Assembly: GCA_963664875.1 (NCBI GenBank)
Contig: OY761611.1
Location: 340,511 to 404,510 of the forward strand
Source of the DNA: Candidatus Kapaibacterium sp.
GTDB lineage: Bacteria; Bacteroidota; Ignavibacteria; Kapaibacteriales; UBA2268
Length of the DNA: 64,000 nucleotides
Reading direction: 5' to 3'
How positions within the stretch are numbered: position 1 is the stretch's first letter; every line of letters begins with the position of its first letter. The notes beneath the pieces are model-generated. The model did no database searches and had not been told where the DNA came from. It saw only the letters and a program-made list of their open reading frames with translations. The position numbers were made by a program, and so were the translations under genes. This document shows, one piece after another, positions 13,681-39,635 of the stretch.

Positions 13681-13690
13681 AGTAGCCTCG

Positions 13691-14575: not shown

Positions 14576-14716
14576 GATTTATCATTCGCGGCTTTTGTTC
14601 TTTCAAATTTCTATAATATAAGAATAAACGTAAAAAATCTAAATATAAGTTATCCAATTTTTTTAGATTTGTACTTTAATATGTTTAAAACACTCAAGAT
14701 ACAAACAGGGGAAATA

Positions 14717-15925
14717 ATGTCTGAGATTAAAAAAATTGGTATCATCACCAGCGGTGGCGATTGTGGCGGACTTAATGCTGTTATAAACGGTGCTTCTCGT
14801 ATGGCTCATAGCTTAGGTATAGAAGTCGTACTTATTCCCAATGGTTATGCAGGATTATACAATTTAGAAAATATCGAGCCTGTAGTTATTGATTTTGCTC
14901 GTGCTGATAGAATTCATTCCGGTGTTGCCGGCTCTGAAGCGGGTCACTCAAGAGTAAAAATCAGCAAAATTCAGAATCCTGAAAAATATAACATCATCAG
15001 AAAAGGTTTGGAAAAACATAATATTGATGCACTTGTTATCGCCGGGGGCGATGATACTGGTTCTGTAGTGGTAGATCTTATCAAAAATGGAATCAGATGT
15101 ATTCATGTTCCTAAAACTATGGATTTAGATTTGCAGACTTACTCTGTAGGTGGTGATTCTACAATAAACAGAATCTCAAAATTTACTGAAGACTTGAGGA
15201 CTACAGGGCTTACTCATAACCGTACTCTCATAATTGAAGTTTTTGGCAGATATGCAGGGCACACAGCTTTTAGAGGTGGTATCGGAGCTGATGCAGACGC
15301 TGTTCTAATTCCTGAAATCCCTGTTGATTATGGATATTTATATCAGCATTTCAAAAAAACATACATGAACAGACTTCTTGCTTCTGATGTTAAAGGATCA
15401 ACCTATATTATCGTTGCTGCTGAAGGCTTGAGGGACAAAGAAGGCAATTTATTTACAGATGTTTCCATCACTGATTCGTTCGGACATCAAAAACTATCCG
15501 GTATCGGGAGGTATGTTCGTAACCAACTTGAAGCACACATGAAACAAGATCCTGAATGGCAGGAAATGCTTAAAAAGGAAGGTATTTACGTGGAAGATAT
15601 ATATGAATATCCTGAAATTAGAGAAGTAACATTAGGACACTTAGTCCGTGCAGGTCAAACGAGTTCCTACGATGTGACTTTTGGTAAACAGTGTGGCGGA
15701 GGTGCAGTTTTACTACTAACTAAAGGCATTGCCGGAGTTACTGTTGTTGGTATAGAAGGAAAAGAAGTATCATATATACCTACCGAAGAAGCTATAAAAC
15801 AACGATTCGTAGATTTAGAAGATGTTGCTTTCCACGAAAAACTTGGTGTTTGCTTTGGTAGAGAACCTGAAGCATACGAACCTGAAATCAAACAATACTC
15901 CGGCAAAATACACAGATATATGTAA
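14717..15925 (+). CDS. pfk: 6-phosphofructokinase, probably pyrophosphate-dependent
   Basis: GGDCGGLNAVI N-terminus. GGDDTGS (Asp at the position that is Gly in ATP-PFK GGDGS) and PKTMDLD (Lys at the position that is Gly in ATP-PFKs) are both described discriminators of PPi-PFKs. Start taken at MSEIKK (14717, preceded by aggggaa); the track ORF begins further upstream. Confidence 0.8.
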   Translation: MSEIKKIGIITSGGDCGGLNAVINGASRMAHSLGIEVVLIPNGYAGLYNLENIEPVVIDFARADRIHSGVAGSEAGHSRVKISKIQNPEKYNIIRKGLEKHNIDALVIAGGDDTGSVVVDLIKNGIRCIHVPKTMDLDLQTYSVGGDSTINRISKFTEDLRTTGLTHNRTLIIEVFGRYAGHTAFRGGIGADADAVLIPEIPVDYGYLYQHFKKTYMNRLLASDVKGSTYIIVAAEGLRDKEGNLFTDVSITDSFGHQKLSGIGRYVRNQLEAHMKQDPEWQEMLKKEGIYVEDIYEYPEIREVTLGHLVRAGQTSSYDVTFGKQCGGGAVLLLTKGIAGVTVVGIEGKEVSYIPTEEAIKQRFVDLEDVAFHEKLGVCFGREPEAYEPEIKQYSGKIHRYM

Positions 15926-15989
15926 CATCTGATATTGCCAAATAGAATTCTTGTTTTTAAAATAAAAACAGTATTTTTGTGTTATAAAT

Positions 15990-16028
15990 AATAGGCTAAT
16001 TGATTTCTTGGAAATTATTTAGCCTATT
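15990..16028 (+). terminator. Stem-loop (10-bp stem, 19-nt loop) followed by a T-rich run; likely pfk terminator or a 5'UTR element of the J-domain gene
   Basis: aataggctaa ... ttagcctatt inverted repeat followed by tgttttcgctttgttg. Confidence 0.45.
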
Positions 16029-16058
16029 TGTTTTCGCTTTGTTGTTAATTATTACAGA

Positions 16059-24142: not shown

Positions 24143-27100
24143 TTATTTCAAAAATTTTACCATTGCACCATAATTTTTATCAACCTTAAACCCAATTTTT
24201 TTAAGGAAATCTTGAATTTCGAAGTGCGTTTTTACAACTTCTATATCTTTTTGTTTCAGTCTCTCAAAAAATACTTCAAGCATACTGCTTCCAAGTCCTA
24301 AACCTTTTAGTTCCTGTACTATAACAGTACCGTCAAGAAATACAGTGTTTTTATCTATCTCTTTGAAGCTCAAACCACCAACTAATCTATCATACTTGTC
24401 TTGCATCACATAGTATCTGTATCCTTCTCCGTATTTCATCGTGTAGTTTTCTTTATGGAATAATCTATAAAGTAAACCTATTTCAGAAGGTTTGAAAGTT
24501 TCATAAATGAAGTAATTATTCTTACCTGCATCTACAATTTTTGTCTTTATAGTATTGCCAAATATATTATCAGTATAGTCATAAGCTAACTGTTTTGGTA
24601 TCAATTGATAAGGAAATACCATTTTACTAAATACTAATTTGTCGTTTTTGTTAGTAAGATTAAATTGTAAGTCTGATAATTCATTTAGCTCTGTGACATC
24701 TGTATAATCTCTTAAGTCTATAATTTTCAACAGCCTGTCAAAGGCATTTCTTATTTCGATAGAATGATTTCGAAAATATGTGTGCCTGAAGAAGTAGTAT
24801 CTATTGTAATCAGAAACCTGATTAAGTTCATATTTGTCAAAAAATGTAAAAATAGTATCTATAGTTGCTTCAGGGGTAGCTGCATCATTAAGGAATTGCC
24901 AGTTAATAAAATTGTCAATTGCATTTGATAATATCATTGGAATAAAGCACTTAGGATAATCTTTAAGATACTTTTTCAATTCGTAGAGTAACTGATTTCT
25001 GCCATCAACAAAATCATATTTTTGAAAATCTGATTCAAGTTCTTTTAAGAAGTTAAGTCCCTCTTTTTCGCCTAATACTTCCATAATGGAATCAAAAATC
25101 CAATTCAAATCGAGGTGACCGGAAATCCAAGAATAATGAGATATAGTCTTTTTATAGAAATTTTTATAAAATGGCAAAATCAGAGAAATAGGAGAAGAGT
25201 AATAGACCCAGCCGTTTAGCGATAGCAGTCTGCCGGCATCCATATAGTCTTTATTGGGTAATATTACATTAGACATTGAAATGAACCCCGGAATTATTTT
25301 TTTTCCGCTATTTCTCCAGCCCATCAAAATAGATTTCATTGAGTACACAAATATTTTTTGTAATTGTGATAAATCCGCCTTCTTGTCAGCAGATAAAATC
25401 TCATTAGACAAAATTCTGATATGTCCCCAAGCTGTCAACTCATCATGGTAAATAACTGATCTTATACTCAATTCAGGGCGGGCACAACCTAATTTTGGCA
25501 AGACTTTAGAACCATAAGGATAAGACGAGATTATCATCAGCCAAAAAACTGTTTCCAGATTCCTACGCGATTTTAAATTTTCGTTGATAACTAATTGAAA
25601 ATCAAAACGTTCTCCATTTTTAGTATTGACACACATCCTAAAAATATTATTCTCGTGTGTGTGTGTTATATTTGAAATCCATATACCATACTCAGTTAAA
25701 TCATCAAGACAAAATTCATGCTTATCAAAAGCAAGCATTACTGATTGCTTCAAAAAAGTCGTAGTTGTCAAAATAGAAAACAGCTGAGATTTTGCTTTTT
25801 CGGGAACTCCATCGTCAAATGTAATTTTCTTTTTCCACTCATTTTTATCTTCTACTCGGAAAGCATTTTGGATTTTTTTCTCATAGTATTCCGAAACTTC
25901 AATAAAGTACTTATGAGCTATTTCAGATATTTTCTCATCGTCATCATGCATCATCCAATTTACCAATTCACTTCTGACCGGTTCGTAATAGTGTCCATAT
26001 TTTTTTACAAATTGCACAAGCAACCTGAAAATATTCTCAAACTGTTTCACTAAAAGTCTATTTACCGGCCATTTGAGTTGAGTTCGATAAATAAATAGCC
26101 TTTGTCTTAGGGTTTCTAATCTCCTTTTTTCAAATTTATGAGAGGTAATTTTAGCAATATATTCTTCATTGAGGAATGAAAAACCGGATTCCAAAAACGT
26201 GAAATACCCCGATGAGTGAAATGCGAAAGCATCATGAGTTAACAAAATCATATATGCTCGACACCTTATGTTTTCAATAGGGTGATACGCAAGTGATTCT
26301 AACCTAAGCTTGATGAGTTCTATTAAGTTAGAGTCTGTATTGCTTATTAGTAGCTCAATATTAGTAAGAGCAGTCTGATTGTCATTAGATTTATCTGCAA
26401 CAATCAAAGAATAATTTGCAATCAGCTCAGCAAGACCGGGAGATTTGAAGTTTTCGCTACTTGACTTACTGCTGTTTGATATAAGAGGTAGTTTTACTCT
26501 TTTATGGAAATATTTTAAATCAACTTCCCAAATTTCTTTGACAGGAGAAAAGTCTCGAAAAGGCTGATTCCCAGCCCAAAGCAATGGTTGTTTAGCAAGT
26601 ATATCAAAATCTAAATTATTTGTTTCATGCGTGTAAATCAGATTTCCGATTTGATAACAATTTTCATCTGTTTTTCTGCAAATCAGCTCTCTGTTATTTA
26701 CTCTGTCGTATATTGAGTTTTGACGTATGAGTATATCACTTTCTAAAATTCCGAGATCTCTGTAAAACCATCTTGGTATTCTTATATAAAAGCCCTGCAT
26801 CTTAAGATCAACAAAGTTTCGTTCATAACATGAATCTATAAGTGATTGATAATTCTTTAGAATAAGCTTTCTATTTAAAGTCTGCTTGGCAGTAATTTCT
26901 CCATTCTTTGCGTTAAAATCTTGTTCAAGTATTTTGAAATTGACTATTCGCTCATATTTTGCAAGTGATTTATTAGCTACCATAATCAACTTATGACAGT
27001 AGTCATGCAAATCTGATTTGGAGAGTCCGATTATTAGCTCGTCTTTAAAATCAGGAACAATAAAAAGAATATTATAAGGTTTTCCGTCGCCTACGAGAAA

Positions 27101-28684
27101 CACTCTTTTGATGCCGGGCACACCTTCGAACTTGCTTTCTACATTTCTCGGAGCAACAGTTTGTCCTTTGTTGTTTTTATAAATATCTTTTACTCTGTCG
27201 ATAATTTGGAAATGTCCTAATTTATCCTTGACAAAGATGTCACCAGTAGCAATATGGTAGTCATTTTCATTATTTTGAGGATACTCTATGACAGATTCAG
27301 GAGGAGCATCTTCCAAATATTTCGCCACATAATGTCCGGATATTGACATTTCGCCATTATCTGCAAGTTTCGGATAAATACCGGGAAGAGCTATTCCTGT
27401 AGAGTTTGCTACGTATTCGCCGGGAGGAGTCATTGTAATTCCACCCGTGGCTTCGGTCATTCCAAATCCGCTGGATAGTTTAATATTATATTTATTGAAA
27501 AACTTAAATACTTTTGGATCTAAATACCCGGCTGCAGATAGTCCCCATTTCAATTTTTTTCCAAGTACATTGCTTATTGCTTCTTCCGGAGCAATTCTAT
27601 GTTTGTCCATCATTAACATTATGTTGTCATAAGCTTGCTGCCAACGCAAAGGAATACTTATGAATATTGTCGGGTTTACAGTTGGGAATAATTTGAATAG
27701 AGTAGAGCCTGAAGGCGAACCTGTAAATGTATAAGTACCATTCCAATAGATGGTTCCCAAAAGTTCCAAATATCTGCCGAAAGTATGGAATAACGGCAAG
27801 TATGAGAGCATCACTTCTTTATCACCGATAAAGGGAACAGAAGCACCTCTGGCAAATCTTTTAGAGACAAGGGAATAATTGCTGAAAGAGATACCTTTGG
27901 GCTGACCGGTTGAGCCGGAAGTGAACATAACTGTTGACACTTCATTTGTATTGATAGATTCATATTTACTTATGCATTCTTCTATTTCATCAAGTGTAAG
28001 TTCTGAAGTAGCAACAGATAAATTGAGACAATTAAATAGTTCAACGTTGGAAAAAACTTTTGTAGTAAATATTTCAAGATTATTATTAATATCTTTTCTC
28101 AACTCATCAAGTAGTTTCAGTCTTTCTAATTTGTCAGTTACGGCTATATCAATTTGAAGCGTTTTAAAGATAGAGAGCAATTCGGATTTTGACGAATTTA
28201 TATTGATGGGAGTAACAAAGATTCCATGCATCAGGCAACTTAGATCAGTTAGGGCAGAGTACACACCATTATCACAAAATATTGCTACTCGTGGTCTTTT
28301 GCTTTTTTGTAAAAGTGCAGCGGCTATAGATCTGGTTAAATCATAAACTCTTTCATAAGAAAATTTTTGAGAAGGAGTAGCCCCCATATCCCTAAACAGA
28401 ATAGCATCCTTATTTCTATATAAACGTTGCTTAAACATATCAAGCAACGAATAATTAGATTTTTGTATTAGTTCGAAAGCACGTTCAGCCAATAAATATC
28501 TATCTTCTATATTTTGAACGTATTTAAGAAATGTTACACGAAATACTAAATCGAGCAATTCAAAGATTATATCAGCATCTTTGCCATGATATTCGAAATA
28601 GAATCGTTTTATAGTTTCGAAATGTTTTTTTAAATAACCATCGTAGTTTTTTGCTTCTTTCAAAATATCTCTAATGTCAGGCAT
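24143..28684 (-). CDS. Giant tripartite protein: AMP-forming acyl-CoA synthetase/adenylation (ANL) domain, ~700-aa unassigned middle region, C-terminal GNAT N-acyltransferase
   Basis: ANL motifs MFTSGSTGQPKG (A3), GFGMTEATGG (A5), ATGDIFVKD...IDRVKD (A7/A8). C-terminal GNAT motif A VIVQELKGLGLGSSML and ...FLKKIGFKV. 1513 aa, no signal peptide. Confidence 0.7.
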   Translation of the reverse strand: MPDIRDILKEAKNYDGYLKKHFETIKRFYFEYHGKDADIIFELLDLVFRVTFLKYVQNIEDRYLLAERAFELIQKSNYSLLDMFKQRLYRNKDAILFRDMGATPSQKFSYERVYDLTRSIAAALLQKSKRPRVAIFCDNGVYSALTDLSCLMHGIFVTPININSSKSELLSIFKTLQIDIAVTDKLERLKLLDELRKDINNNLEIFTTKVFSNVELFNCLNLSVATSELTLDEIEECISKYESINTNEVSTVMFTSGSTGQPKGISFSNYSLVSKRFARGASVPFIGDKEVMLSYLPLFHTFGRYLELLGTIYWNGTYTFTGSPSGSTLFKLFPTVNPTIFISIPLRWQQAYDNIMLMMDKHRIAPEEAISNVLGKKLKWGLSAAGYLDPKVFKFFNKYNIKLSSGFGMTEATGGITMTPPGEYVANSTGIALPGIYPKLADNGEMSISGHYVAKYLEDAPPESVIEYPQNNENDYHIATGDIFVKDKLGHFQIIDRVKDIYKNNKGQTVAPRNVESKFEGVPGIKRVFLVGDGKPYNILFIVPDFKDELIIGLSKSDLHDYCHKLIMVANKSLAKYERIVNFKILEQDFNAKNGEITAKQTLNRKLILKNYQSLIDSCYERNFVDLKMQGFYIRIPRWFYRDLGILESDILIRQNSIYDRVNNRELICRKTDENCYQIGNLIYTHETNNLDFDILAKQPLLWAGNQPFRDFSPVKEIWEVDLKYFHKRVKLPLISNSSKSSSENFKSPGLAELIANYSLIVADKSNDNQTALTNIELLISNTDSNLIELIKLRLESLAYHPIENIRCRAYMILLTHDAFAFHSSGYFTFLESGFSFLNEEYIAKITSHKFEKRRLETLRQRLFIYRTQLKWPVNRLLVKQFENIFRLLVQFVKKYGHYYEPVRSELVNWMMHDDDEKISEIAHKYFIEVSEYYEKKIQNAFRVEDKNEWKKKITFDDGVPEKAKSQLFSILTTTTFLKQSVMLAFDKHEFCLDDLTEYGIWISNITHTHENNIFRMCVNTKNGERFDFQLVINENLKSRRNLETVFWLMIISSYPYGSKVLPKLGCARPELSIRSVIYHDELTAWGHIRILSNEILSADKKADLSQLQKIFVYSMKSILMGWRNSGKKIIPGFISMSNVILPNKDYMDAGRLLSLNGWVYYSSPISLILPFYKNFYKKTISHYSWISGHLDLNWIFDSIMEVLGEKEGLNFLKELESDFQKYDFVDGRNQLLYELKKYLKDYPKCFIPMILSNAIDNFINWQFLNDAATPEATIDTIFTFFDKYELNQVSDYNRYYFFRHTYFRNHSIEIRNAFDRLLKIIDLRDYTDVTELNELSDLQFNLTNKNDKLVFSKMVFPYQLIPKQLAYDYTDNIFGNTIKTKIVDAGKNNYFIYETFKPSEIGLLYRLFHKENYTMKYGEGYRYYVMQDKYDRLVGGLSFKEIDKNTVFLDGTVIVQELKGLGLGSSMLEVFFERLKQKDIEVVKTHFEIQDFLKKIGFKVDKNYGAMVKFLK

Positions 28685-28747: not shown

Positions 28748-28951
28748 ATAATTTACTAAGCAGTGTAAACTCTTATTGTAGATACTTATTTAGCCAGATA
28801 ATATTGCTAAACAGTTTTACGATTGCAATATAACAAAGCTATTAAATATCATAAATAATAAAATAAAGACTTTTCTAATATCTCGCAAACACAGAAATTA
28901 AAAATGTCCTTATGGGCAATAAATAAAAATCATAAAAATAAAGGTAATGTT

Positions 28952-30214
28952 ATGCAAATTTCCGGATTGAGATACGGCTCTCGTTTGCTAAATCTGGTTG
29001 AATTTCCATACGCAGATTTTCTTACCGGTAGTTCTACTAAAGAAGAAATTCAATCTATGCTCGACAAAAACGGTAAGGTTGTTATCAAACCTCAGTTTTC
29101 AGGTGGAGTAGGCAAAAAAGGTAAAGCCGGTCTTGTAAAAATAGTTGATAACATTCATGATGCTTTCAGAGCAAAAGAGCAACTTTACTTTGCTGAACAT
29201 ACACACGGAAATAAAACTATAAGAGCAAATGGCGTAACTTTCGAAGAGTTTATCCCTTCGGAAGTTGAGTTATATTTTTCAATAACTAATTCCACTATAG
29301 AGAGAAAGCCAATTTTCACAATCACACCGAATGGTGGTGTTGATATAGAAGATTTGCCGGCAGAAAAGAAAAACGTTACTTGGATAGATCCTCTTATTGG
29401 TATCAAATCTTTTGATATTACAAATGCTCTAAATGATTTGAACTGTCCTTTGGAATTTATTTCTCCTTTGGTACAATATCTACCAAAATTATGGGATTTG
29501 TACAGCAATTATGGTGTATCTACACTTGAAATAAATCCTATAAGAATGAAAAGGGTCGGATCCTCATATGTTCCTGTTGCGTGCGACCTCAAAGTTGCAT
29601 TCGATCAAGATAGCCCTGATTGGAAACGCGTCGAACTTCCAATGTCAATTTTTCAATCAGAAACTACTGAATTCGAATCTGAAATCAATAAATTGAGAAC
29701 ATATCAAGGGCAGAGCGACGTTGTTGAGCTTAATGCCAATGGTTCTATTATTCCGTTTATGTTTGGTGGTGGTGCTAACTCCGCTGCTACTGAAACTTTA
29801 GGCAGCCGTGCAATTTTCGCTTCAGATTTTGGTGGCAACCCACCTTATGAAAAAATGTATGAAATATCTAAAATCGTCTTCAAGCACTGGTTAGACAAAG
29901 CTAACACACTTTTGCTAATCGGAGGGAAGGCAAACAACACTGATATTTATGTAACATTCAAAGGCATTTTTGATGCACTCAGAGACCATATTGCAGAGCA
30001 TGGCAATAAGCCAATTTACACTGTAATTGGAAGAGGTGGTCCAAACCTTATACAAGGTATGTATTACGGTAAAGATATTTTAGATACTATGAAATTGCCT
30101 TATAAAATGTTCGGGTTTGATTCTTCTATGATACAGACTTTAGAATATGCCAAACGTATTGACGAATGGTGGGGCAAAGAAGGCAAGGCAGATTACATAA
30201 AAAAACATATGTAA
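28952..30214 (+). CDS. ATP-citrate lyase family, small (AclB/SucC-like, ATP-grasp) subunit
   Basis: Collinear with the succinyl-CoA synthetase beta / ACLY N-terminal module: VIKPQFSGGVGKKGKAGLVKIV, LEINPIRM, FMFGGGANSAATETLG, LLLIGGKANNTD. Start at MQISGLRY (28952); the track ORF starts at 28904. Confidence 0.7.
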   Translation: MQISGLRYGSRLLNLVEFPYADFLTGSSTKEEIQSMLDKNGKVVIKPQFSGGVGKKGKAGLVKIVDNIHDAFRAKEQLYFAEHTHGNKTIRANGVTFEEFIPSEVELYFSITNSTIERKPIFTITPNGGVDIEDLPAEKKNVTWIDPLIGIKSFDITNALNDLNCPLEFISPLVQYLPKLWDLYSNYGVSTLEINPIRMKRVGSSYVPVACDLKVAFDQDSPDWKRVELPMSIFQSETTEFESEINKLRTYQGQSDVVELNANGSIIPFMFGGGANSAATETLGSRAIFASDFGGNPPYEKMYEISKIVFKHWLDKANTLLLIGGKANNTDIYVTFKGIFDALRDHIAEHGNKPIYTVIGRGGPNLIQGMYYGKDILDTMKLPYKMFGFDSSMIQTLEYAKRIDEWWGKEGKADYIKKHM

Positions 30215-30256
30215 TCTATAATTTTTAGTATTAGAAATTAAATAACGGAATAAACC

Positions 30257-32980
30257 ATGACTCAATTGCAAACCAAACCCTTTCCATATTATGTAGGGGT
30301 TTACTCTCTCGAAGAATTAGTCAATAAAGACTCAAGAGTGTGTGTCATAAATATATTAGGCGGCGAAAGCCGAAAAGTTACTCCTGTTTCTCATGAATAT
30401 AGCAATGGCAATGTAGTTGCCGGTGTTCAATATGGCAGAAGAGGTGAATTAGAAACAAAAAAAGGTAATATACCTGTTTTCCGCTCTATCAGAGATGTAA
30501 TGGATAACGGAATTACATTTGATGTTGGTGTTATCTATTTACCTCCAAGTGCTGTAAGCCAAGCAGTAGCTGAATTAGTAAATTTCAATCCTGACTTGAA
30601 ACGCATAGTAATTGTTACAGAAAAAGTGTCTTCTTATGATTCTATGGCAATTCGTGTTATTTGCCAGGAAGCCGGTGTTGATGTGATTGGCTGTAACTGT
30701 TTGGGTGTTGCAAACGTTTGGGACCATGTTCGTGTTGGTGGAGCTCTTGGTGGTGACAAGCCGGAAGAAACATTGCGTCCGGGTTCTGTTGCAATTCACT
30801 CCAACTCAGGTAACTTCACAACTACCATATCAGAATATCTAAGAACTGCCGGATTTGGTATTTCAACTGCAGTTTCATCAGGTAAAGATGTATATATACA
30901 TTTTGCACTTCCTGAATTTTTGTTTGCCGCTCAGAATGATCCGCGTACTAAAGCAATAGCTCTGTATGTAGAGCCGGGTGGATATTATGAAAAACAAGCT
31001 TTGGATTGGATAGAAGAAAGAAGATTTGCTTTCAATAAACCTATTGTTGTTTGCGTAACCGGAAGATGGAAAAAAGATTTGCAAAGATCTTGCGGACACG
31101 CTGGAGCTCTCGCAGGTGGCGGTGACGATGCAATAAGTAAAGAGCAATGGTTTGATGATTACTTTGGCGTGGGTGTCTTTGATCCTGAAAATCCTGTAGT
31201 AAGCAAACGTGGTGTTCGTATTGCTTCTATTCAAGATTTTCCTAAGGCAATGCACGCAGTGTATGCTAAGATTGATGAAAAACCTGACTTCGATGCAACA
31301 GGTGACTTGTCTTTGAAATTATGGATAAGTGACAACGTAGTAAAAGTTCCAAAAGAATTAGATTTACAAGTTGTTCAGGCAATTGAACCATATAACAAAC
31401 AGATTCTTGAACAGAACAAACAAATAGGTGCGAATTATCTAAGACAGAGCATGGCTGATAAATCAGGTGCTTCCCGTATGGATAAGAAAACTCAGGTAGC
31501 ACATCTACATGGAAAATCTATATTAGATTTGTCTAAATATTCTATAGAAGAGAATTTGTACTTCTCGTTGGCTAAAATTTTGCCTGATCAAGATGATGTT
31601 AATTCAATAAATATTCTCTTAAATCTCTTTTTGCAGGTAGAATCACATCAAATAGCTAATCTACAATATGCAAAAGGAAATGATTGTACGCCAAATGCAT
31701 TTATGGCTTCTCAGTTAGCTGCTATTAGTAATAAACCACTACTTGCAAATATTGCTAATTATAGCGCTATGCTAATAGATGTAATAAGAGAAAACGGTAT
31801 AGATACTAATACTAAAGATTTAGGTTCTTTGCTCAATAACTTTATAGAAGAAAAGATACTTACAGATGATGCTTTAGAAAATGAAGCTGCTGATATTTTA
31901 GAAAAAGAGATTTTGAAATCTAAAAAGCAATGTATTTCCCTCAATGTCATTCAGCATATATTGAAATATGCAGCAGATAAAAAGAAAAATATCAGAAACA
32001 AGTACGAGTTTTTATTATCTGGCATGTCGCTATGTATCTTCTGGAAGCCTATGTTAGAAAAACGTATTACCAGAGATGTAGCTGAAAATGCACTCAGTTA
32101 TTTTTATAGTGTTGCACAATTAGTTGCTTTTTCGGTTACTGATGCCGACAGCAATAAAATGTGGAAAGAACTGACTGCCGGCAAAATCAAAAATATTACT
32201 AATAGTTTCACAGATAATGTATTTAAGATACTTTTCAACAGAGTACCAAAACCTGAAGAGTTGACCGAATTGAAATATCTTGTTGGACTCACTTTGACAA
32301 ATGGTCCGGGTACTATCTCTGCAAAGGGAGCAAAAGAAACAGTATCTGCAAGAAACTATATTCCAACTGCTTACGTAGGATTTTTAGTTAATACAGGTCT
32401 TGCTCATGGTGGTAATGGTTTCGAAGCTGTAGAGTTTTTGTTAAACAATTTCAAAGATTCTGATCTTAAGAATCCGGGCGATAAAAACCATGAAATTGAT
32501 TTAGCTACTATAGCAAAAAATGCTGCTAAAGAATACAGAAAATTCAAAAAACTCGAAAAAGAAAGTGGAAAAATGAACTACGCAAAAATCCCTTGCGTTA
32601 ATCATCCTGTTTTCAAAGGTAATGATGTAAATATTGATCCTCGCGAAGATTTCGTAAGAAAAGAACTCGAACAATCAAATATTTATAACATTTTCTTGGA
32701 TTTCTACCACAAACTTGTTGTTGAGTTATTCAATGAAGGTGCAACTAAAAACGTATTCTGTGTCAATGTTGATGCAGTTATTTCAGTCATTGCACTCAAA
32801 CTTGTTTGGAATGATTTACAAAAAGGAACACTTTCCAAAAAACAAGTCCAGGATCTTGTATTTATTTTATTCCTAATTGGTAGAGCTGTGGGTGTATCTG
32901 CGGAAATAGCAGACCACAGGGATCGTGGTCAGGATATGGACTGTAGAACTCCACAATCAGCACTGGGATTTGTACTGTAA
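30257..32980 (+). CDS. ATP-citrate lyase family, large subunit (SucD-like CoA-binding domain with phospho-His, plus citrate-synthase/citryl-CoA-lyase-like C-terminal domain), with ~250-300 extra residues between the modules
   Basis: CoA-binding/SucD-like N-terminus with SCGHAGALAGGGDD (active His loop, cf. GHAGA). C-terminal part matches the ACLY citryl-CoA-lyase module by eye: LTLTNGPGTISAKGA, CVNHPVFKGNDVNIDPRED, FCVNVDAVISV, FLIGRAVGVSAEIADHRDRG. Confidence 0.7.
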   Translation: MTQLQTKPFPYYVGVYSLEELVNKDSRVCVINILGGESRKVTPVSHEYSNGNVVAGVQYGRRGELETKKGNIPVFRSIRDVMDNGITFDVGVIYLPPSAVSQAVAELVNFNPDLKRIVIVTEKVSSYDSMAIRVICQEAGVDVIGCNCLGVANVWDHVRVGGALGGDKPEETLRPGSVAIHSNSGNFTTTISEYLRTAGFGISTAVSSGKDVYIHFALPEFLFAAQNDPRTKAIALYVEPGGYYEKQALDWIEERRFAFNKPIVVCVTGRWKKDLQRSCGHAGALAGGGDDAISKEQWFDDYFGVGVFDPENPVVSKRGVRIASIQDFPKAMHAVYAKIDEKPDFDATGDLSLKLWISDNVVKVPKELDLQVVQAIEPYNKQILEQNKQIGANYLRQSMADKSGASRMDKKTQVAHLHGKSILDLSKYSIEENLYFSLAKILPDQDDVNSINILLNLFLQVESHQIANLQYAKGNDCTPNAFMASQLAAISNKPLLANIANYSAMLIDVIRENGIDTNTKDLGSLLNNFIEEKILTDDALENEAADILEKEILKSKKQCISLNVIQHILKYAADKKKNIRNKYEFLLSGMSLCIFWKPMLEKRITRDVAENALSYFYSVAQLVAFSVTDADSNKMWKELTAGKIKNITNSFTDNVFKILFNRVPKPEELTELKYLVGLTLTNGPGTISAKGAKETVSARNYIPTAYVGFLVNTGLAHGGNGFEAVEFLLNNFKDSDLKNPGDKNHEIDLATIAKNAAKEYRKFKKLEKESGKMNYAKIPCVNHPVFKGNDVNIDPREDFVRKELEQSNIYNIFLDFYHKLVVELFNEGATKNVFCVNVDAVISVIALKLVWNDLQKGTLSKKQVQDLVFILFLIGRAVGVSAEIADHRDRGQDMDCRTPQSALGFVL

Positions 32981-33071: not shown

Positions 33072-34385
33072 TTATCTTTTTATTCTGATTGCTTTTACCG
33101 GCCAATCTACATTCTCATCTGTAACTTCATATATTTCAATGACTCCTTTGTCTTTCAAAATATTTACAAGAGCATAAGTTGGACCTGTTGCATAACCTTT
33201 GTTAGCCAAAATTCTGGTAACAAATGATCTGAGACCAAGATATTGGAAATTATCACTATTAGCTGTAATAGTTTCAGACTTATCCAATTCTTTTAACAAT
33301 TGTTCTTCAGTGATAATCCTGTCGCCTTCGTTGCTGTCGTCGTTCATAGACTGATTAAGATTGATTTTGCCTAATACTTTCAATCCTATACGAGATTCTG
33401 TATTCAATTCACCTAATTTAAAATCAGAACCTTCGAAAGCCTCTATCGTTGCTTCTCGTATAGCTTCCTGTTCTGTTATGCTAAATCTAAATTCGTCGAT
33501 TCCTGACTCAGCATTGCTGATAATCAGCATTAAATCATGGTGGAGTTCTTCTGCAGTTCTTAGTTCGTCAATAGAAAAATAGATATTATGAGCAACTTTA
33601 TTTCTAATAGAGAATAATTCCCGCCATTTTTTTTCAAATTGCTTATCCTGAAATGCTGTTTTGAAAAACTTATTATAGTTTGTTTGCAAATCATTTTTCA
33701 ATTTGAATAAGTCTTCCGGGGAGGAAGCAAGCATTATTTTATTTACTATGCTCTCTTGCTTATTAAATCCTGCTACATGTTTGTAAATAACTTCTCCTAA
33801 GTCATTAAAATCTATGAGAGAAACATCTAAATCAACAAATCCGGAAAAGAGATTTTCGTTTTCTTTTCTAACTTTAATTTTATCAATGAGTTGCTTAGGA
33901 AAGTTAGTGTTCCACCAATTAACTCCGATTTTGAGGGTAAAAAATTTGACTATATATCTTCTCAGAGCATTTTCAACTTCATTTACAAGTGGGTAAATAT
34001 CAACGGCAATTTTTGCAGAAACATCGTCTTTTAAAATTTTCAAATTAGAGAAAGATAGTTTTGCTTTTAAATGTTTTATTAGCTTAAATCTAAATTTTTC
34101 CAATTGCTCAAAGTTTGAGCTCCAAACATTTAGTAAAAAAGCTGAGTCAATCAAATCATTTAATGTATTGCTTGTATCAACGGATTGTATAATCACATCA
34201 ATTCCGGTCCCTTTGTCGTGAATTCTAAACTGTTTTTTTGCATAATTAGATTGATCTTCGGGTGTTTCCCATAAAGATTCCATAAATAAAAGACCGTGTA
34301 CCATGGAGCTCTCAGTTGAAATTTCAGCATTACCATATTTATCAATTGCCAGAATTTCAAAGTTTAAAGGGATGTCGTTATTCAT
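33072..34385 (-). CDS. Hypothetical protein with Rx4H HEPN-like motif (possible Abi/defence-associated RNase)
   Basis: No TM/signal; motif ELFSIRNKVAHNIYF fits the HEPN Rx4-6H signature as in Abi_2/Swt1-type HEPN domains; the rest is unassigned. Orphan gene bracketed by a terminator and a promoter region. Confidence 0.4.
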   Translation of the reverse strand: MNNDIPLNFEILAIDKYGNAEISTESSMVHGLLFMESLWETPEDQSNYAKKQFRIHDKGTGIDVIIQSVDTSNTLNDLIDSAFLLNVWSSNFEQLEKFRFKLIKHLKAKLSFSNLKILKDDVSAKIAVDIYPLVNEVENALRRYIVKFFTLKIGVNWWNTNFPKQLIDKIKVRKENENLFSGFVDLDVSLIDFNDLGEVIYKHVAGFNKQESIVNKIMLASSPEDLFKLKNDLQTNYNKFFKTAFQDKQFEKKWRELFSIRNKVAHNIYFSIDELRTAEELHHDLMLIISNAESGIDEFRFSITEQEAIREATIEAFEGSDFKLGELNTESRIGLKVLGKINLNQSMNDDSNEGDRIITEEQLLKELDKSETITANSDNFQYLGLRSFVTRILANKGYATGPTYALVNILKDKGVIEIYEVTDENVDWPVKAIRIKR

Positions 34386-34577: not shown

Positions 34578-37500
34578 ATGCGCAATAGATACTTTATATC
34601 ACTTTTGTTATTTTTTCTAAGCAGTATATATGCATACAGTAAAGAAGCAGATACATTATCCGGTAGTCAGAGCAAAGAAATAATTGAAGAGCACATTATA
34701 TCTAACCCCAAAAGTATTATTCAGGAAGTATTGCGAAATACTGAATCAGTAGAATCATTATCTCTGCAAAAAAAAATTATTCTTGCAAAAGCCTTTTATT
34801 ATAACAATCAAAACTCACAATCCAAAAGACTTTTAAAAAACATCTTAGATTCCAGTAGTGTTGGTAATCCTGTAAATTTAGAAGCTAAACACTTCCTAGC
34901 AAGTGTATTTTATCGAGAAAATGATCTAAAAAATGCTCTCAAGTTTGCTTTAGAGTCAAAGGATAAAATAACCAATGAGAATATGAAAGCAGAGTCAAAT
35001 AATACTCTCGGTTGTATCTATTATCAGCTTAAAGACTATAATTCGGCATTAGAATATTTTAAAGCAGCAGCTCTTATTCAAAAGCAGAAAAATGATTTCA
35101 AAGGTTTGTCTATCACTTACAATAATATGGGTTCTTTGTATTATGAAATAGAGAACTACTCAAAAGCGATTGAATTCTTAGACTATGCTTATTTACTAAA
35201 AACTAAATATGCAAATTTAGAAGATTTGATATCTACTGTCAATAATCTGATTGTGGTTTATAGAGATGCCGGCTTGTCTGAAAAAGCCTTCGAGTATCAA
35301 AATAAACTTATAGATTTGAAAGACTCTCTTTTTACTCAAAGACAGTCCAAAAAAAAAGAGATGATGCAGTCAGTCATAGACAGCACCACAACTTTGATAT
35401 CCGAAGCTATGCAACAAATGCAAAAATTGGAATCGGAAAAAAAAGAATCTCTTCAGCAGGCTCTTAAACACAAAGAAAAGTCTGAAATCAACGAATCCGC
35501 TTTAGAAGATTTAGAATTAGACTATATACTAAATCTTCAGCAGATGAAAGACAAAGAAATTGAGCTCCTCAAACAAGATAATCAAATCAAGGAATTAGCT
35601 TTAACTCAGCAACAAGATTCAATATTGCTACAATCAAAAGCTAATCGATTATTGATGATGGAAAATCAGAAAAAGCAATTGGAGCTGATGAATCAAAAAA
35701 ATATTATAACTTTAGCAGATAAAGAAAGAAAACTGATGGAACAGCAGAAGGCAGCTAAAGAAAGATATATGCTATTGCTTATTTTAGGTCTATTATCATT
35801 CGGATTGATTGCTTTGGTTCTTTACACAAAGTTTAAACACAATCAGAAGATAAACAAACTTCTTGGTGAAAAGAACTACGAATTATCTGAAACGAATAAA
35901 AAGCTAAAAGAATCGCAATATTTTTTGAAAGAAAGCAATACAAGGTTTTCAACCATTTTTCACAGTAGCCCAATACCTTCAACTCTAACAGTATTTCCTT
36001 CAGGATTGTTTCTTGACGCAAATCAAGCATTTTTAAACCTGTTTTCTATAGATAGATCTGATTTGGAAGGAGTATCTCTTAAAGACGTTCCTCTTTGGGA
36101 AAATCCATTACAAAGAGAAGAGCTTATTGCTACATTGAGCAACCGAAAGAAAGTAGAAGGCGTTGAAATGGATTTGAAGGATTTGAAAGGGAATGTATTA
36201 CATACTCTTGTTTTTTCAGAAGTTATTGAAATAAACAATGCTCCTCGAATTCTTACTGTTATCCAAAACATAACTGATAGAAAAAAAGCTGAACACGCTT
36301 TGCAATCTGCAAAAGAAGCTGCAGACTCGGCAAACAGACTGAAGTCAGAATTTTTAGCAAATATGTCACACGAAATCAGAACCCCTATGAATTCGATTCT
36401 TGGGTTTAGTGATTTGTTGAAAAACAGAATTACTACTCCGCAAGAAAAGGAATATGCTGAAGCTATCATCTCTTCCGGGAAAAATTTATTGGTATTGATA
36501 AATGATATACTTGATTTGTCAAAAATTGAAGCAGGACGCTTAGAACTCATATATGATTCTACAAACTTAAAAGAACTTGGCAACGAAATTAAACAGTTGT
36601 TTTCTATAAAATGCCTTCAAAAAGACATTGATTTCAGTTACAATTATAACTCAGAACTTCCTGAAAGTTTCATACTTGACGAAACTCGTGTAAGACAGGT
36701 TTTAGTAAATTTGGTTGGCAATGCTGTTAAATTTACTTCCACAGGCGGCGTGTATTTGAATATTTCAGGAGAATATGCTATACAGAAAGGCAGAATGAAT
36801 TTAATTGTTTCTGTGAAAGATACAGGAATAGGCATTCCTAAAGAACAGCAAAATCAAGTTTTTGAAGCATTTCATCAACAAAAAGGTCAGTCCAACAGAA
36901 TATTTGGTGGTACGGGACTTGGCTTGTCGATTTCTAAAAAACTTATTGAAATGATGGGTGGGAAAATATCGTTGATTTCGGAAGAGCAGTCCGGATCAGA
37001 GTTTATTTTTACGATTCCAAATGTAGAAATATCAAAAGTAGTCCAAAGAAAATCTAATTCTTTTGAAGACTTTCCTTTTGCTAATTATCAATTTGAAGAT
37101 CAATCAATATTGGTCGTTGATGATAATGAACTAAACCGAATTCTACTCAAAGAGTATGTTCGAGATACCGGCTTGATTGTATATGAAGCTGGGAATGGTG
37201 ATGATGCAATCAAAATGACTGCTAAAATGAATCCAAATTTAGTGCTCATGGATTTGAAAATGCCAATAATTGACGGTTTCGATGCCACGAAAACAATCAA
37301 AAGAGATGAAAATATTAAGCATATTCCAATAGTGGCTCTTACAGCTTCGGCAATGAAAAGTGATGAGATGAAGATTTCTGAAACAGGATTTGATGATTAT
37401 CTGCGTAAACCTGTGAATAAAAATGACTTATATAAAGTGCTTTTAGCATTTCTTAAGTACAAAGAGCTCGAATCTGACAACACTAATGAATTTGAAGTAG

Positions 37501-37799
37501 AAAATGTTCAAAATCTCGAAGAAATTGGCAATGATGCTTTAAGTGGATTGATTAACGAACTGGAACTAAAGCATTTAGCTAATGCAGAAAGGTTAAGTAA
37601 AGTGCTGAAGATAGGTGCTGTTCAAGAATTTGCAGATGAACTAAGTCAATTAGCTGAAAAATATCAGGCACAGTTTTTAAATATTTTTGCTGAAGATTTG
37701 AAACATAGGGCAAATACACTTGATCTATTGGGCATTAGAGAAAAGTTAGCAGAGTTGCCAGAAATTAGCGGTAAACTGAAAGAGCAAATATCAGGCTAA
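34578..37799 (+). CDS. Hybrid sensor histidine kinase/response regulator with periplasmic TPR ectodomain (signal/TPR - TM - PAS-like - HisKA - HATPase - REC - C-terminal HPt-like)
   Basis: Signal peptide, TPR pairs, coiled coil, TM (LLILGLLSFGLIALVLY), H-box FLANMSHEIRTPMN, HATPase boxes, receiver (VVDDN...LMDLKMPIIDG). Confidence 0.85.
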   Translation: MRNRYFISLLLFFLSSIYAYSKEADTLSGSQSKEIIEEHIISNPKSIIQEVLRNTESVESLSLQKKIILAKAFYYNNQNSQSKRLLKNILDSSSVGNPVNLEAKHFLASVFYRENDLKNALKFALESKDKITNENMKAESNNTLGCIYYQLKDYNSALEYFKAAALIQKQKNDFKGLSITYNNMGSLYYEIENYSKAIEFLDYAYLLKTKYANLEDLISTVNNLIVVYRDAGLSEKAFEYQNKLIDLKDSLFTQRQSKKKEMMQSVIDSTTTLISEAMQQMQKLESEKKESLQQALKHKEKSEINESALEDLELDYILNLQQMKDKEIELLKQDNQIKELALTQQQDSILLQSKANRLLMMENQKKQLELMNQKNIITLADKERKLMEQQKAAKERYMLLLILGLLSFGLIALVLYTKFKHNQKINKLLGEKNYELSETNKKLKESQYFLKESNTRFSTIFHSSPIPSTLTVFPSGLFLDANQAFLNLFSIDRSDLEGVSLKDVPLWENPLQREELIATLSNRKKVEGVEMDLKDLKGNVLHTLVFSEVIEINNAPRILTVIQNITDRKKAEHALQSAKEAADSANRLKSEFLANMSHEIRTPMNSILGFSDLLKNRITTPQEKEYAEAIISSGKNLLVLINDILDLSKIEAGRLELIYDSTNLKELGNEIKQLFSIKCLQKDIDFSYNYNSELPESFILDETRVRQVLVNLVGNAVKFTSTGGVYLNISGEYAIQKGRMNLIVSVKDTGIGIPKEQQNQVFEAFHQQKGQSNRIFGGTGLGLSISKKLIEMMGGKISLISEEQSGSEFIFTIPNVEISKVVQRKSNSFEDFPFANYQFEDQSILVVDDNELNRILLKEYVRDTGLIVYEAGNGDDAIKMTAKMNPNLVLMDLKMPIIDGFDATKTIKRDENIKHIPIVALTASAMKSDEMKISETGFDDYLRKPVNKNDLYKVLLAFLKYKELESDNTNEFEVENVQNLEEIGNDALSGLINELELKHLANAERLSKVLKIGAVQEFADELSQLAEKYQAQFLNIFAEDLKHRANTLDLLGIREKLAELPEISGKLKEQISG

Positions 37800-39635
37800 T
37801 TTTTTAAAAGATATTATCTTTAAAAGTTTTACAAGTTCTTCCTCAAATTCCTTATTATTACCAGGCAAAGGGTTTATCAGAGTAACCGAACCGCTTTTAT
37901 TATACCAAATATCAAATACTAATTCTAAACTGCTTTTACCAAAGGTGTATCTTTCGCATGCAGGAAGATGTTTTATTTTGTGAACTGAGTAGTCTTGGGT
38001 TATGCAGTGTTTTACTGCATAGTATATATTTATCAATGCGTTATCTGATTCTTCTAAATCTTTGTGCAGATCTTCAGTTTCGCTATAATCAAGAAAAGAC
38101 TCTTTTATTTGATAGTTTGTTTCTTTCTGCACTCCATATTCTAATTGTGTACCCGGCAGTAGCGTAGGAGCATTGAAAGCAAATAGAGTCGAAGATGCTC
38201 TCGTTATAGCTGTATAAACCCATCTAAAATATGCCTCATGACTATATCCGTTAACTGATGTAAAATCGACAAAGACATTTTGCCATTCACCGCCCTGAGC
38301 CTTATGACAGGTAATTGCATAAGCGTACTTGACTCGCAGGCAGTTGAAATAGGGATCAACTTTAATGAAATCTATAAACTTTTTGCTTCCGGGTTTTAGC
38401 TGAGGAAATCTGGATTTAAAATCGTAGTATAAAGCTAACTTTTCCTCATAGCTCATATCTCGTTCCAATGAATCTAAAATTGGTTCGTAAATTTTACATT
38501 CTAATATCTTTTCTCTTCCGTTTTCATCAGTAAATTCAAGTAATACATCTCGAAATATAAGATTGACTTTTTTTACACCGCTGTAGGTATAGATTGGAAT
38601 TGACTTAGATTCAGTATAAAGTGAAACCTTCAAGACTTTTCCAATTTCTCCATTCATCAAATCTATATCTCCATAGTAAACGTTATTTAAAACGATAACT
38701 CTGTCATCTTCTCCTATGGTATTCCTATTCGGAAAGAAGTGGTTTCTTATTCGATTATTATACTCTTTAACCATTTTATTGGAGTAAGCTATAATCATTA
38801 CATCGTCAGATATTTCGTGCTGGGAAACTTCAAGATAAGTACCAAGGAATGTCTCTTTTGTAAGGACACGTATGTCTTTTCTGTTGTCCAATATTTCTAA
38901 CTTATCGAAATCTTTATTTATTATGGCATTCCTTACGGAAGTTGCAGTTTCAAGCAGCGCAGAGTCTTCTTTTTGTCTTACCACATCTGTTAATTCTGAG
39001 GTATTTGCTTCTAAGAAGAAATGTTCTTTTAAGTAATCTGAATTTAATGCAGGAGATAAAAGATTTTTGACAGGAGGGAGCTGTGCCGGATCACCAACAA
39101 AAATAATTTTATTGCTATATCCTATATACTGCAACAAATCATTCAAAAGCGACCCCGAACCAAAGGACATAAGCTCATTACCAAGTGAAATGTCAGGTAT
39201 CATTGAGGCTTCATCAATTATGTATAAAGCTTCTCTTGTGATATTTCGTCTTATTTCAAAATAATATCGCAAAGAATCTAATGAATCAGTTCCGGCAGAT
39301 GATTCTTTAACAAAACCAACTTGATAAATACTTCTGTGTATTGTGGAAGCTTTATAGCCTGTCTTTTCACTAATCACTCTTGCAGCTTTTCCTGTAGGTG
39401 CCATAAAAATAGTCTCTATTCCTAGAGCATCTAAGTAATCGGCAATACCTTTCAGTAGAAAAGTTTTGCCTGTGCCGGCATAACCTCTCAGAATAAAAAC
39501 TTGTTTTGGACTTTCCAAAAAATTGGTAATTTCTTCTACCGCAGCAGATTGGGAAGGAGTAAGCTTAAATTTATATGTTTCTTGTAGTGTTAGCATAGGT
39601 CTTACTAAAATAGACAAAATTATTGAGTGTCTCAA
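37791..39635 (-). CDS. SF1B DNA helicase, RecD/Pif1/TraA-like, with ~130-aa C-terminal extension
   Basis: Walker A GYAGTGKTF, Walker B IIDEASM, FVGDPAQLPPV, SH3-like insert, motif VI AYAITCHKAQGGEWQNVFV; 614 aa. Confidence 0.75.
   Translation of the reverse strand: MRHSIILSILVRPMLTLQETYKFKLTPSQSAAVEEITNFLESPKQVFILRGYAGTGKTFLLKGIADYLDALGIETIFMAPTGKAARVISEKTGYKASTIHRSIYQVGFVKESSAGTDSLDSLRYYFEIRRNITREALYIIDEASMIPDISLGNELMSFGSGSLLNDLLQYIGYSNKIIFVGDPAQLPPVKNLLSPALNSDYLKEHFFLEANTSELTDVVRQKEDSALLETATSVRNAIINKDFDKLEILDNRKDIRVLTKETFLGTYLEVSQHEISDDVMIIAYSNKMVKEYNNRIRNHFFPNRNTIGEDDRVIVLNNVYYGDIDLMNGEIGKVLKVSLYTESKSIPIYTYSGVKKVNLIFRDVLLEFTDENGREKILECKIYEPILDSLERDMSYEEKLALYYDFKSRFPQLKPGSKKFIDFIKVDPYFNCLRVKYAYAITCHKAQGGEWQNVFVDFTSVNGYSHEAYFRWVYTAITRASSTLFAFNAPTLLPGTQLEYGVQKETNYQIKESFLDYSETEDLHKDLEESDNALINIYYAVKHCITQDYSVHKIKHLPACERYTFGKSSLELVFDIWYNKSGSVTLINPLPGNNKEFEEELVKLLKIISFKKLA

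Follow-up and report, generated by a model that had tools for sequence, protein, structure and literature searches.

Within a 64,000-nucleotide stretch of Candidatus Kapaibacterium sp. (contig OY761611.1; the whole stretch is referred to here as the window), we investigated two genes that resemble those encoding the subunits of ATP-citrate lyase (ACL). The two open reading frames (ORFs), at 28904..30214 (+, 436 aa) and 30257..32980 (+, 907 aa), lie on the same strand with a spacing of 42 nt. We found that the large subunit, encoded by the second gene, appears to contain the core of citryl-coenzyme A (CoA) lyase (CCL) twice: a C-terminal copy with active-site-type residues and, ahead of it, a degenerate tandem duplicate. 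We found no earlier description of a duplicated lyase core, and we consider it the most interesting element of the locus. The product of the pair is probably a heteromeric enzyme that cleaves citrate in an ATP- and CoA-dependent manner and has a third architecture, beside AclAB and the combination of citryl-CoA synthetase (CCS; CcsAB) with Ccl. The step diagnostic of the reductive tricarboxylic acid (TCA) cycle is the cleavage of citrate at the expense of ATP, and surveys for that cycle use aclAB or ccsAB/ccl.

The large subunit is built from a CcsA-like module, a linker, and a module resembling citrate synthase (CS) that comprises the two lyase cores. To delimit the second core, we relied on shorter relatives. 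A phmmer search with residues 320-907 against 1.84 billion representative proteins gave 358 matches at E-values up to 0.001; the best 150 of these were apparently all members of this family or of a sister family of ~690 aa, together with fragments, and none of these 150 was an ordinary CS or ACL. The shorter relatives among the matches included proteins of 686-694 aa (P0139, P0283) and one of 265 aa (P0136), which is probably a fragment, given its 1,035-bp contig and its clustering with the 686-aa P0283. In a multiple alignment, the 907-aa and ~690-aa proteins differ by one block, aa 428-648 (31538..32200, +; 221 aa), located directly after a predicted beta hairpin. This block is missing as a single unit from the 686-694-aa relatives and from P0136, while the linker and the catalytic core, which flank it, both align with the ~690-aa proteins.

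The inserted block resembles the lyase core itself. Using hhalign, we found that the insert aligned with an independent CCL-core profile of the ~690-aa family over 208 collinear columns (score 44.0, 80.7% probability, E 1.3e-5); column-shuffled controls scored 16.1±2.7 (maximum 23.2) and the reversed control 13.9. Alignment of the insert with the catalytic half of its own family covered 198 collinear columns (score 32.2, E 7.8e-4), with controls at 15.2±2.6 for shuffles, ~13 for reversal and up to 28.5 for block-20 shuffles. The resemblance is to the family's own lyase core (E 1.3e-5) and not to the N-terminal region of CS (E 0.1-0.4). When we asked whether the CS N-terminal region might likewise be a decayed copy, its comparison with the lyase-core profile, made with a single CS sequence only, was not significant (E 0.09-0.5). 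The AlphaFold model, which is confident in the insert region, places a series of ten helices in both halves, with mirrored lengths: ~10, 13, 12, 12, 19, 12, 12, 15, 20 and 13 residues in one and 10, 13, 9, 10, 17, 21, 12, 15, 18 and 29 in the other.

Every catalytic motif is absent from the N-terminal copy. Its mean identity to the window protein within the family is 43%, versus 68% for the catalytic copy, and its length is held at 219-221 aa in all 53 aligned sequences. Absent motifs, lower conservation and fixed length form the pattern expected of a structural pseudo-domain. Together, the alignment, profile and model data indicate that the insert is a degenerate, non-catalytic tandem duplicate of the citryl-CoA-lyase core. 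The original prediction had described roughly 300 extra residues at about 340-620, and had suggested either a more complete CS-like domain or something new. The extra length is there, but it is not one stretch: it is made up of a flexible ~70-aa linker (aa 336-405), also present in the ~690-aa family, and the 221-aa insert. Similarly, the CS-like character held in a fold search with the C-terminal 578 aa (see below), while the newness did not, as the block appears to be no new domain but a decayed copy of the lyase core.

The catalytic copy occupies aa 649-897 (32201..32947, +). It matches the NCBIfam citryl-CoA lyase model NF004869 over aa 650-897 (1.4e-7; score 31 versus a cut-off of 212), and it carries seven residues, N682, H717, H783, R796, D839, R876 and R897, that are invariant in 53 large-subunit sequences. 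To assign these residues, we aligned the family profile by hhalign with a genuine CS, encoded next to the pair in a metagenome-assembled genome (MAG) of Acidobacteria (E ~1e-4, 27% identity, 186-193 columns). This alignment bore out three motif pairings that had earlier been made by eye, here as TNGPGT with DHESGN, CVNHPVF with GYGHAIL, and VNVDAV with PNVDAQ. In what we take to be the residue numbering of pig CS, the 36-residue spacing between H238 and H274 of which also holds in the Acidobacteria sequence, H274 corresponds to H717 (motif GLAHGGNG), H320 to H783 (CVNHPVF), R329 to R796 (DPR), D375 to D839 (VNVDAV), R401 to R876 (GRAVG) and R421 to R897 (CRTP). The position of CS H238, which is H900 in human ACLY, is taken by the invariant asparagine N682 in the motif TNGPG, and that of CS N242 by an invariant threonine, T686.

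The predicted structure relates this C-terminal module to CS as a whole. In the full-length model (pLDDT 76), the linker is disordered at about aa 350-403, and aa 405-890 form an all-helical region modeled with confidence; a model of aa 330-907 reached pLDDT 80 and pTM 0.83. In Foldseek searches against the PDB, the full-length model retrieved collinear ACL chains (6HXJ_B and human ACLY 6QFB), CCS, and the alpha subunit of succinyl-CoA synthetase. With the C-terminal 578 aa, the best matches were full-length citrate and 2-methylcitrate synthases: all 50 best matches listed were of this type, with no CCL or ACLY chain among them, and the top match, 3HWK_A, gave E 1.1e-7 and a TM-score of 0.69 normalized to the 366-aa target. 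An hmmsearch of PDB sequences with the C-terminal profile revealed nothing significant, the best relevant match being CCL 6HXP (E 0.083); the relationship to CS therefore rests on hhalign, on weak Pfam and NCBIfam matches, and on the fold search. Among the weak matches is Pfam Citrate_synt (PF00285), which aligned aa 396-492 with profile positions 3-100 at 26.2 bits, just below its cut-off of 27. Thus, the module has the full CS fold, the CS catalytic residues and the substrate arginines, whereas it carries N682 and T686 in place of H238 and N242 and scores under the PF00285 gathering threshold. The module opens with the N-terminal beta hairpin (aa 406-427; 31472..31537, +), modeled with strands at aa 406-408 and 415-417 and alignable with the hairpin region of the ~690-aa relatives. 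Preceding it is the inter-module linker (aa 336-405; 31262..31471, +), mostly of low model confidence (pLDDT <50 at aa 350-365, 367-379 and 385-403), with a mean identity of 64% to the window protein within the family and with the conserved motifs PDF..GDLSLK.W and PY..Q.

The remainder of the locus corresponds to an ATP-dependent ligase. As the original prediction had it, the large subunit begins with a SucD-like module that includes a phosphohistidine loop: aa 45-293 match the Pfam families CoA_binding, Succ_CoA_lig and Ligase_CoA, and NCBIfam and PDB matches extend this CoA-binding/CoA-ligase (SucD/CcsA-like) module to aa 21-301 (30317..31159, +), where the NCBIfam model for succinate--CoA ligase alpha matches at 7.4e-40, far under its equivalog cut-off. 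The phosphohistidine is H281, in the loop QRSCGHAGALA (codon 31097-31099), and a catalytic-type glutamate, E239, lies in a conserved (V/I)E(P/I)GG motif (codon 30971-30973); both are invariant across the 53 large subunits. The first gene encodes the small (beta), CcsB/AclB-like subunit. Its homologues align from about residue 17, and the published N-terminus of its Geobacter metallireducens homologue Gmet_0305, MQLTGLKYG, aligns with its MQISGLRYG; we therefore consider M17 (28952) the likely start, giving a gene for 420 aa at 28952..30214 (+) within the mechanical ORF from 28904. In the 436-aa numbering, an ATP-grasp nucleotide-binding domain spans aa 44-213 (29033..29542, +; ATP-grasp_2, PF08442, 1.9e-16, 60.7 bits versus a cut-off of 29.5), and an ACL-type citrate-binding domain spans aa 255-414 (29666..30145, +; PF16114, 1.7e-16, 60.7 bits versus 26.8). 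Both scores exceed the curated cut-offs and agree with the ATP-grasp identity proposed for this gene. A scan for promoters and terminators gave nothing over background.

The citrate-binding domain contains the motifs FGGNP, GGKANNTD and GRGGPN. In an alignment with human ACLY, residues G309, N346, T348 and R379 fall on the G, N, T and R of FGGNP, ANNT and GRGGPN, and in all 41 small subunits compared, those of Geobacter and Variovorax among them, the equivalents of these four residues do not vary. The equivalent of ACLY F347 is an asparagine, as in CCS. Taken together, the residue data favor a reading in which citrate is the substrate and the C-terminal lyase core is competent for catalysis.

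We next compared the pair with characterized enzymes. The best PDB match to the large subunit was the small subunit of Hydrogenobacter thermophilus CCS (6HXQ_A, 2.6e-33, aa 22-296), and the best match to the small subunit was the large subunit of the same enzyme (6HXQ_B, 2.8e-36). ACL chains scored lower: for the small subunit, Methanothrix ACLY-A gave 1.8e-23, human ACLY ~2e-19 and Chlorobium AclB 8.8e-14, and for the large subunit Chlorobium AclA gave 4.9e-16. Expressed in bits, CCS reached 118 and 129, versus 61 for Chlorobium AclA and 55 for AclB, and no ACL model was among the NCBIfam matches. On these profile and PDB comparisons, the pair appears to lie outside canonical AclAB, with Hydrogenobacter CCS as its closest solved relative, consistent with the original prediction of an ACL-like two-subunit enzyme outside AclB/AclA and with its suggestion of a CCS/CCL-like enzyme. 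The citrate loops of the small subunit match those of CCS nearly residue for residue (DFGGNPP versus DIGGNPP; KANNT versus TANNT), and the lyase core shares an AHGG motif, and a weak alignment, with the Hydrogenobacter CCL (6HXP). Unlike that system, which uses three separate proteins including one 268-aa lyase, this family has the lyase fused to the CcsA-like subunit through the ~70-aa linker and has its core twice, one copy of it apparently dead.

Resemblances to ACL (Chlorobium limicola 6HXJ, Methanothrix 6HXI and human ACLY) lie at the level of organization: two subunits in the same order, a large subunit joining a CoA-binding/phosphohistidine module to a C-terminal CS-homology (CSH) module with a collinear whole-chain fold match, and a PF16114 citrate-binding domain on the ATP-grasp subunit in which the ACLY citrate-site equivalents are kept. 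In contrast to the 907-aa protein with its two cores, however, the ACL large subunit carries one lyase core in ~610-630 aa (617 aa in 6HXJ_B, 631 aa in 6HXI_B), and this family differs from ACL in keeping the CS H274 equivalent, H717, in having an asparagine at the ACLY H900 position, in scoring lower against ACL than against CCS, and in falling under ACL-specific thresholds. CS and 2-methylcitrate synthase (3HWK, 1IXE, 6CSC) provide the best fold match and share the equivalents of H274, H320, D375, R329, R401 and R421; moreover, this family has an extra helical region between the N-terminal hairpin and the core, where CS has sequence absent from the short lyases. It differs from CS in its marginal sequence similarity, in the replacement of H238 by asparagine, and in its fusion to an ATP-dependent ligase.

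Relatives of the large subunit outside the family include the ~690-aa proteins, a CcsA-Ccl fusion family for which we found 652 matches at E<1e-20. They are 37-40% identical to the window protein over shared parts, and they have the same linker motifs as well as the motifs TNGPG, HGGNG, NHPVF/GHPVF, DPRE and NVDA, but they lack aa 428-648 and hence have a single lyase core. They are likewise uncharacterized, and occur in MAGs assigned to Spirochaetes (DG_61), Phycisphaerae (SM23_30), Desulfomonilia, Fibrobacteria and Chitinivibrionales. Matched by description only, this is probably the fused Planctomycete 'aclA' that Thiel et al. (2017) placed between CCS/CCL and a proposed type II ACL (PMC5459899). 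The type II proposal, of Hugler and Sievert (2011), concerns sequences from Magnetococcus and the tubeworm symbiont Endoriftia.

The family with the duplicated core is large. More than 2800 relatives of the large subunit are present in the databases and the pair is conserved in every comparable locus, which confirms that the two predicted ORFs are real genes. The best 120 of the relatives are 896-935 aa long (905-910 aa in 117 of them) and 61-100% identical. Few carry names, and these are 'CoA-binding protein', 'hypothetical protein' or 'succinyl-CoA synthetase alpha subunit/citrate synthase'; some members are called 'citrate/2-methylcitrate synthase' by NCBI. A scan of species-representative genomes yielded 36 loci, all in MAGs. 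The closest, at 88-89% identity, belong to Candidatus Kapaibacterium, and the remainder are labeled Ignavibacteriae, Melioribacteraceae, KSB1, Calditrichaeota, Bacteroidota/'Cytophagia', Anaeromyxobacter and a deltaproteobacterium; Acidobacteria members occur too. A homologue of the small-subunit gene (65-94% identical) lies directly upstream of the large-subunit gene in all 34 loci for which upstream DNA was available, and no operon partner beyond the pair was conserved across lineages in the compared loci. The pair thus behaves as a self-contained two-gene unit in more than 10 lineages. ORFs of 1339 aa and 1358 aa in Anaeromyxobacter MAGs (L023:6696-10715, L029:3765-7841) looked at first sight like fusions of both genes; we rejected them, as the small-subunit gene is in a different frame and each ORF is an upstream extension of the large-subunit frame in high-GC DNA.

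Flanking genes vary among hosts. In the Acidobacteria MAG mentioned above, the canonical 436-aa CS adjoins the pair (L044:10781-12091, -), and in a Phycisphaerales-labeled MAG the pair is followed by sdhA and sdhB (L045:8225-10878). The pair of Variovorax lies between genes for a class II aldolase and a major facilitator superfamily (MFS) transporter. In a Geobacter-type locus, the pair lies between a phosphoenolpyruvate (PEP) carboxylase gene and a CBS-domain gene with frdA/sdhA, sdhB and a CCG-domain gene (neighbors at L038:5355-8153 and 12839-16893). In the related chromosome OW818654.1, an IS110-family transposase gene is found just downstream of the pair (L005:11424-12389). This neighbor, the 60-70% identity across phyla, and the lateral acquisition of the neighboring cluster inferred in a Geobacter paper all fit horizontal spread of the pair. 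No ACL gene is reported in the genome papers of Ignavibacterium album and Melioribacter roseus, nor, for I. album, any CCS/CCL or type II ACL gene; neither isolate was among the matches found here. Because of this, we conclude that the family is patchily distributed and would escape the usual marker searches.

Full-length, more distant members occur in cultured bacteria: G. metallireducens GS-15 (ABB30551.1), G. hydrogenophilus and Variovorax sp. CF079. The GS-15 genes Gmet_0305 and Gmet_0306 are orthologues of the pair with the same lengths and architecture, and we observed no structural difference; the Gmet_0306-type protein P0122 shows 52% identity across the full large subunit and 41% within aa 320-907. 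A 2009 paper called both genes "uncharacterized". In the iAF987 metabolic model (2014), Gmet_0305 and Gmet_0306 jointly stand for the reaction 'ACITL, ATP-citrate lyase'. The same work describes G. metallireducens as growing on formate and Fe(III) while fixing CO2; in contrast, G. sulfurreducens, said in the paper to have no ATP-dependent citrate lyase, needs acetate (PMC3998878). The family was therefore not wholly unnoticed, but was previously known only as unnamed or misnamed sequences and through one model-level assignment.

From these data, we propose how a citrate-cleaving enzyme of this kind would work. In the small subunit, the ATP-grasp domain would take up ATP and the ACL-type citrate-binding domain would hold citrate. 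H281 in the large subunit would accept a phosphate and hand it on to citrate, and attack by CoA would then yield citryl-CoA, as in CCS and ACL. Cleavage would occur in the CS-like module through H717, H783 and D839, the equivalents of CS H274, H320 and D375. In this module, the dead copy (aa 428-648) and the catalytic copy (aa 649-897) would together form the fold of a full-length CS, with the dead copy taking, within one chain, the structural place of the second lyase protomer of the ACL or CCL oligomer. If the dead copy replaces a partner protomer in this way, then the enzyme is predicted to be a dimer of heterodimers and not an ACL-type tetramer.

Several observations weigh against citrate cleavage by this pair. 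No curated model specific for ACL, CCS or CCL was passed (PF24948, 43.5 versus a cut-off of 83; NF004869, 31 versus 212; PF00285, 26.2 versus 27). The asparagine N682 at the position of CS H238 and ACLY H900 implies that the oxaloacetate/citrate pocket differs, to judge from the alignment. The assignment of a citrate site in the small subunit depends on G309, N346, T348 and R379 being, as we presume, the citrate site of ACLY (PDB 3MWD). The window encodes no other marker of the reductive TCA cycle among those sought over its 64 kb (2-oxoglutarate:ferredoxin oxidoreductase, pyruvate:ferredoxin oxidoreductase and fumarate reductase). The hosts are mostly heterotrophs, at least some of which have an ordinary CS too. 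Our literature search found no enzymology for any member, and the ACL assignment in Geobacter is annotation only. Finally, catalysis by the CSH module of human ACLY is itself disputed (PMC10115795).

We weighed this reading against four others. It seems scarcely credible that the pair is an ordinary AclB/AclA enzyme with a known, trivial insertion: the domain order is collinear, the whole-chain Foldseek matches include 6HXJ_B and human ACLY, and a Pfam Citrate_bind domain is present, but CCS outscores every ACL chain for both subunits, the search with aa 320-907 apparently reached no ordinary ACL or CS among the best 150 of its 358 matches, and the inserted block is a second lyase core, of which we found no report in ACL in a literature search of limited reach. 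A CS-like module that is non-catalytic, serving as a scaffold or allosteric element while cleavage occurs in the ligase part or the enzyme acts as an acyl-CoA synthetase without lyase activity, would be in keeping with the allosteric, catalytically non-essential role argued for the human ACLY CSH (PMC10115795) and with the clearly non-catalytic N-terminal lyase copy. It is nonetheless very unlikely, since 53 sequences from many lineages agree without exception at seven active-site-type positions of the C-terminal copy and since the identities of the two copies (68% for the C-terminal and 43% for the dead one) form the pattern of selection on catalysis. The same chemistry might instead act on a hydroxy-tricarboxylate or dicarboxylate other than citrate, for instance 2-methylcitrate or homocitrate. 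The altered acid pocket of the lyase, with asparagine for H238 and threonine for N242, both invariant, would suit such a substrate, as would the 2-methylcitrate synthases among the top Foldseek matches, the NCBI name 'citrate/2-methylcitrate synthase' on some members, and the Variovorax locus between aldolase and transporter. Foldseek, however, cannot separate citrate from methylcitrate synthases, no prpB/prpD-type neighbors were seen in the inspected loci, and the small subunit retains the ACLY citrate-site equivalents in 41 of 41 cases and loops nearly identical to those of CCS. We therefore regard another substrate as unlikely, and the suggestion of a different substrate in the original prediction finds no support in these invariant sites or in the CS catalytic residues that are kept.

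A fourth reading retains the reaction but reverses its main direction: the CS-like module would make citryl-CoA out of acetyl-CoA plus oxaloacetate, and the CCS-like part would convert it to citrate and ATP, making the pair an ATP-conserving CS of anaerobic or facultative heterotrophs. Such ATP-conserving citrate synthesis was reportedly proposed for the ACL of Desulfobacter postgatei by Moller et al. in 1987. The full CS catalytic triad, including the H274 equivalent, is kept, many of the hosts respire anaerobically and they include metal- and nitrate-respiring acetate oxidizers (such as Geobacter and Anaeromyxobacter), and the ACL reaction is close to equilibrium, at about -8 kJ/mol (PMC13147460 Table 1). 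On the other hand, some hosts have a normal CS as well, in one case adjoining the pair, and in Geobacter the PEP carboxylase, the extra frd/sdh genes, and growth on formate and CO2 fit the reductive direction. In addition, the Gmet_0306 transcript is low on acetate, at 6.4 in the first of four columns of Dataset S5, if these are in the order acetate, benzoate, toluene, phenol. We consider a mainly synthetic role doubtful, and retain ATP- and CoA-dependent citrate cleavage as the probable function of the pair.

In the window, the pair sits among housekeeping genes. A sodium:dicarboxylate symporter (SDF; 5875..7353, +), a phosphofructokinase (14558..15925, +), a type III glutamine synthetase (41050..43242, +), and two large secreted proteins with C-terminal sorting domains of the type IX secretion system (50784..53990 and 59328..63491, +), one of them a reprolysin-type metalloprotease, fit a Bacteroidota/Kapaibacteria host. 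Divergent from the pair, at 24143..28684 (-), is the gene for a 1513-aa protein with an AMP-binding acyl-CoA-ligase module (aa 87-622), a C-terminal GNAT domain (aa ~1419-1500), and between these ~800 aa without a family match. Its family is large, with proteins of 1505-1575 aa in Kapabacteria, Zixibacteria, Bacteroidales and Chloroflexota, and carries no name beyond 'GNAT family N-acetyltransferase'. In the public annotation, this ORF appears as a 1362-aa gene with a separate 115-aa gene upstream (L037:3888-8428; ENA ERZ21862665 ctg8777l); the longer ORF is probably correct, as homologues from Kapaibacterium match it along residues 1-1513 with 75% identity. The 1513-aa gene adjoins the pair in all Kapaibacterium loci, in a deltaproteobacterial MAG the gene immediately downstream of the pair (L036:10953-15677) encodes a full-length, 27%-identical homologue, and several further members are possibly on the same contigs as matches to the pair (13,909, 35,962 and 62,141 bp). 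A functional link to the pair through acetyl-CoA or acyl-CoA may exist.

Downstream of the pair, 33072..34385 (-) encodes a 437-aa protein with a Swt1-like HEPN domain (PF18731, 1.5e-6), and 37791..39635 (-) encodes a PIF1/AAA_30/UvrD_C helicase with a terminal TBP-TOTE domain 'of the TOTE conflict systems'. Both may be defense-related, and neither is conserved beside the pair in other lineages among the compared loci. Between them, 34578..37799 (+) encodes a 1073-aa hybrid sensor kinase, with an N-terminal TPR region, a long coiled-coil-like segment, and PAS, HisKA/HATPase and receiver domains, that has only weak partial homologues in related loci.

The tandem lyase core in one chain provides a concrete system in which to study the relationship between the CS and citryl-CoA lyase folds. 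It is conceivable, if on the unlikely side, that this family parallels in living form the proposed origin of CS from an ancestral citryl-CoA lyase, or represents an intermediate of it: tandem duplication of the core and decay of one copy would have turned an oligomeric lyase into a single-chain, CS-like pseudo-dimer, here tethered to a ligase; such an enzyme could serve as a freely reversible, ATP-conserving CS or as a hidden reductive-TCA or anaplerotic switch in many anaerobic heterotrophs. In that case, the capacity for the reductive TCA cycle would be far wider than surveys of aclAB or ccs/ccl report, extending to Kapaibacteria, Ignavibacteriae, Acidobacteria, KSB1, Calditrichota, Myxococcota and Geobacter. 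The family is highly conserved in thousands of genomes and MAGs, yet marker surveys likely miss it. If its members are working or reversible citrate-cleaving enzymes, then G. metallireducens would have a concrete, testable enzyme for its growth on formate and CO2, and estimates of the distribution of reductive-TCA-type carbon fixation, of anaplerosis, and of ATP-conserving citrate synthesis would need revision.

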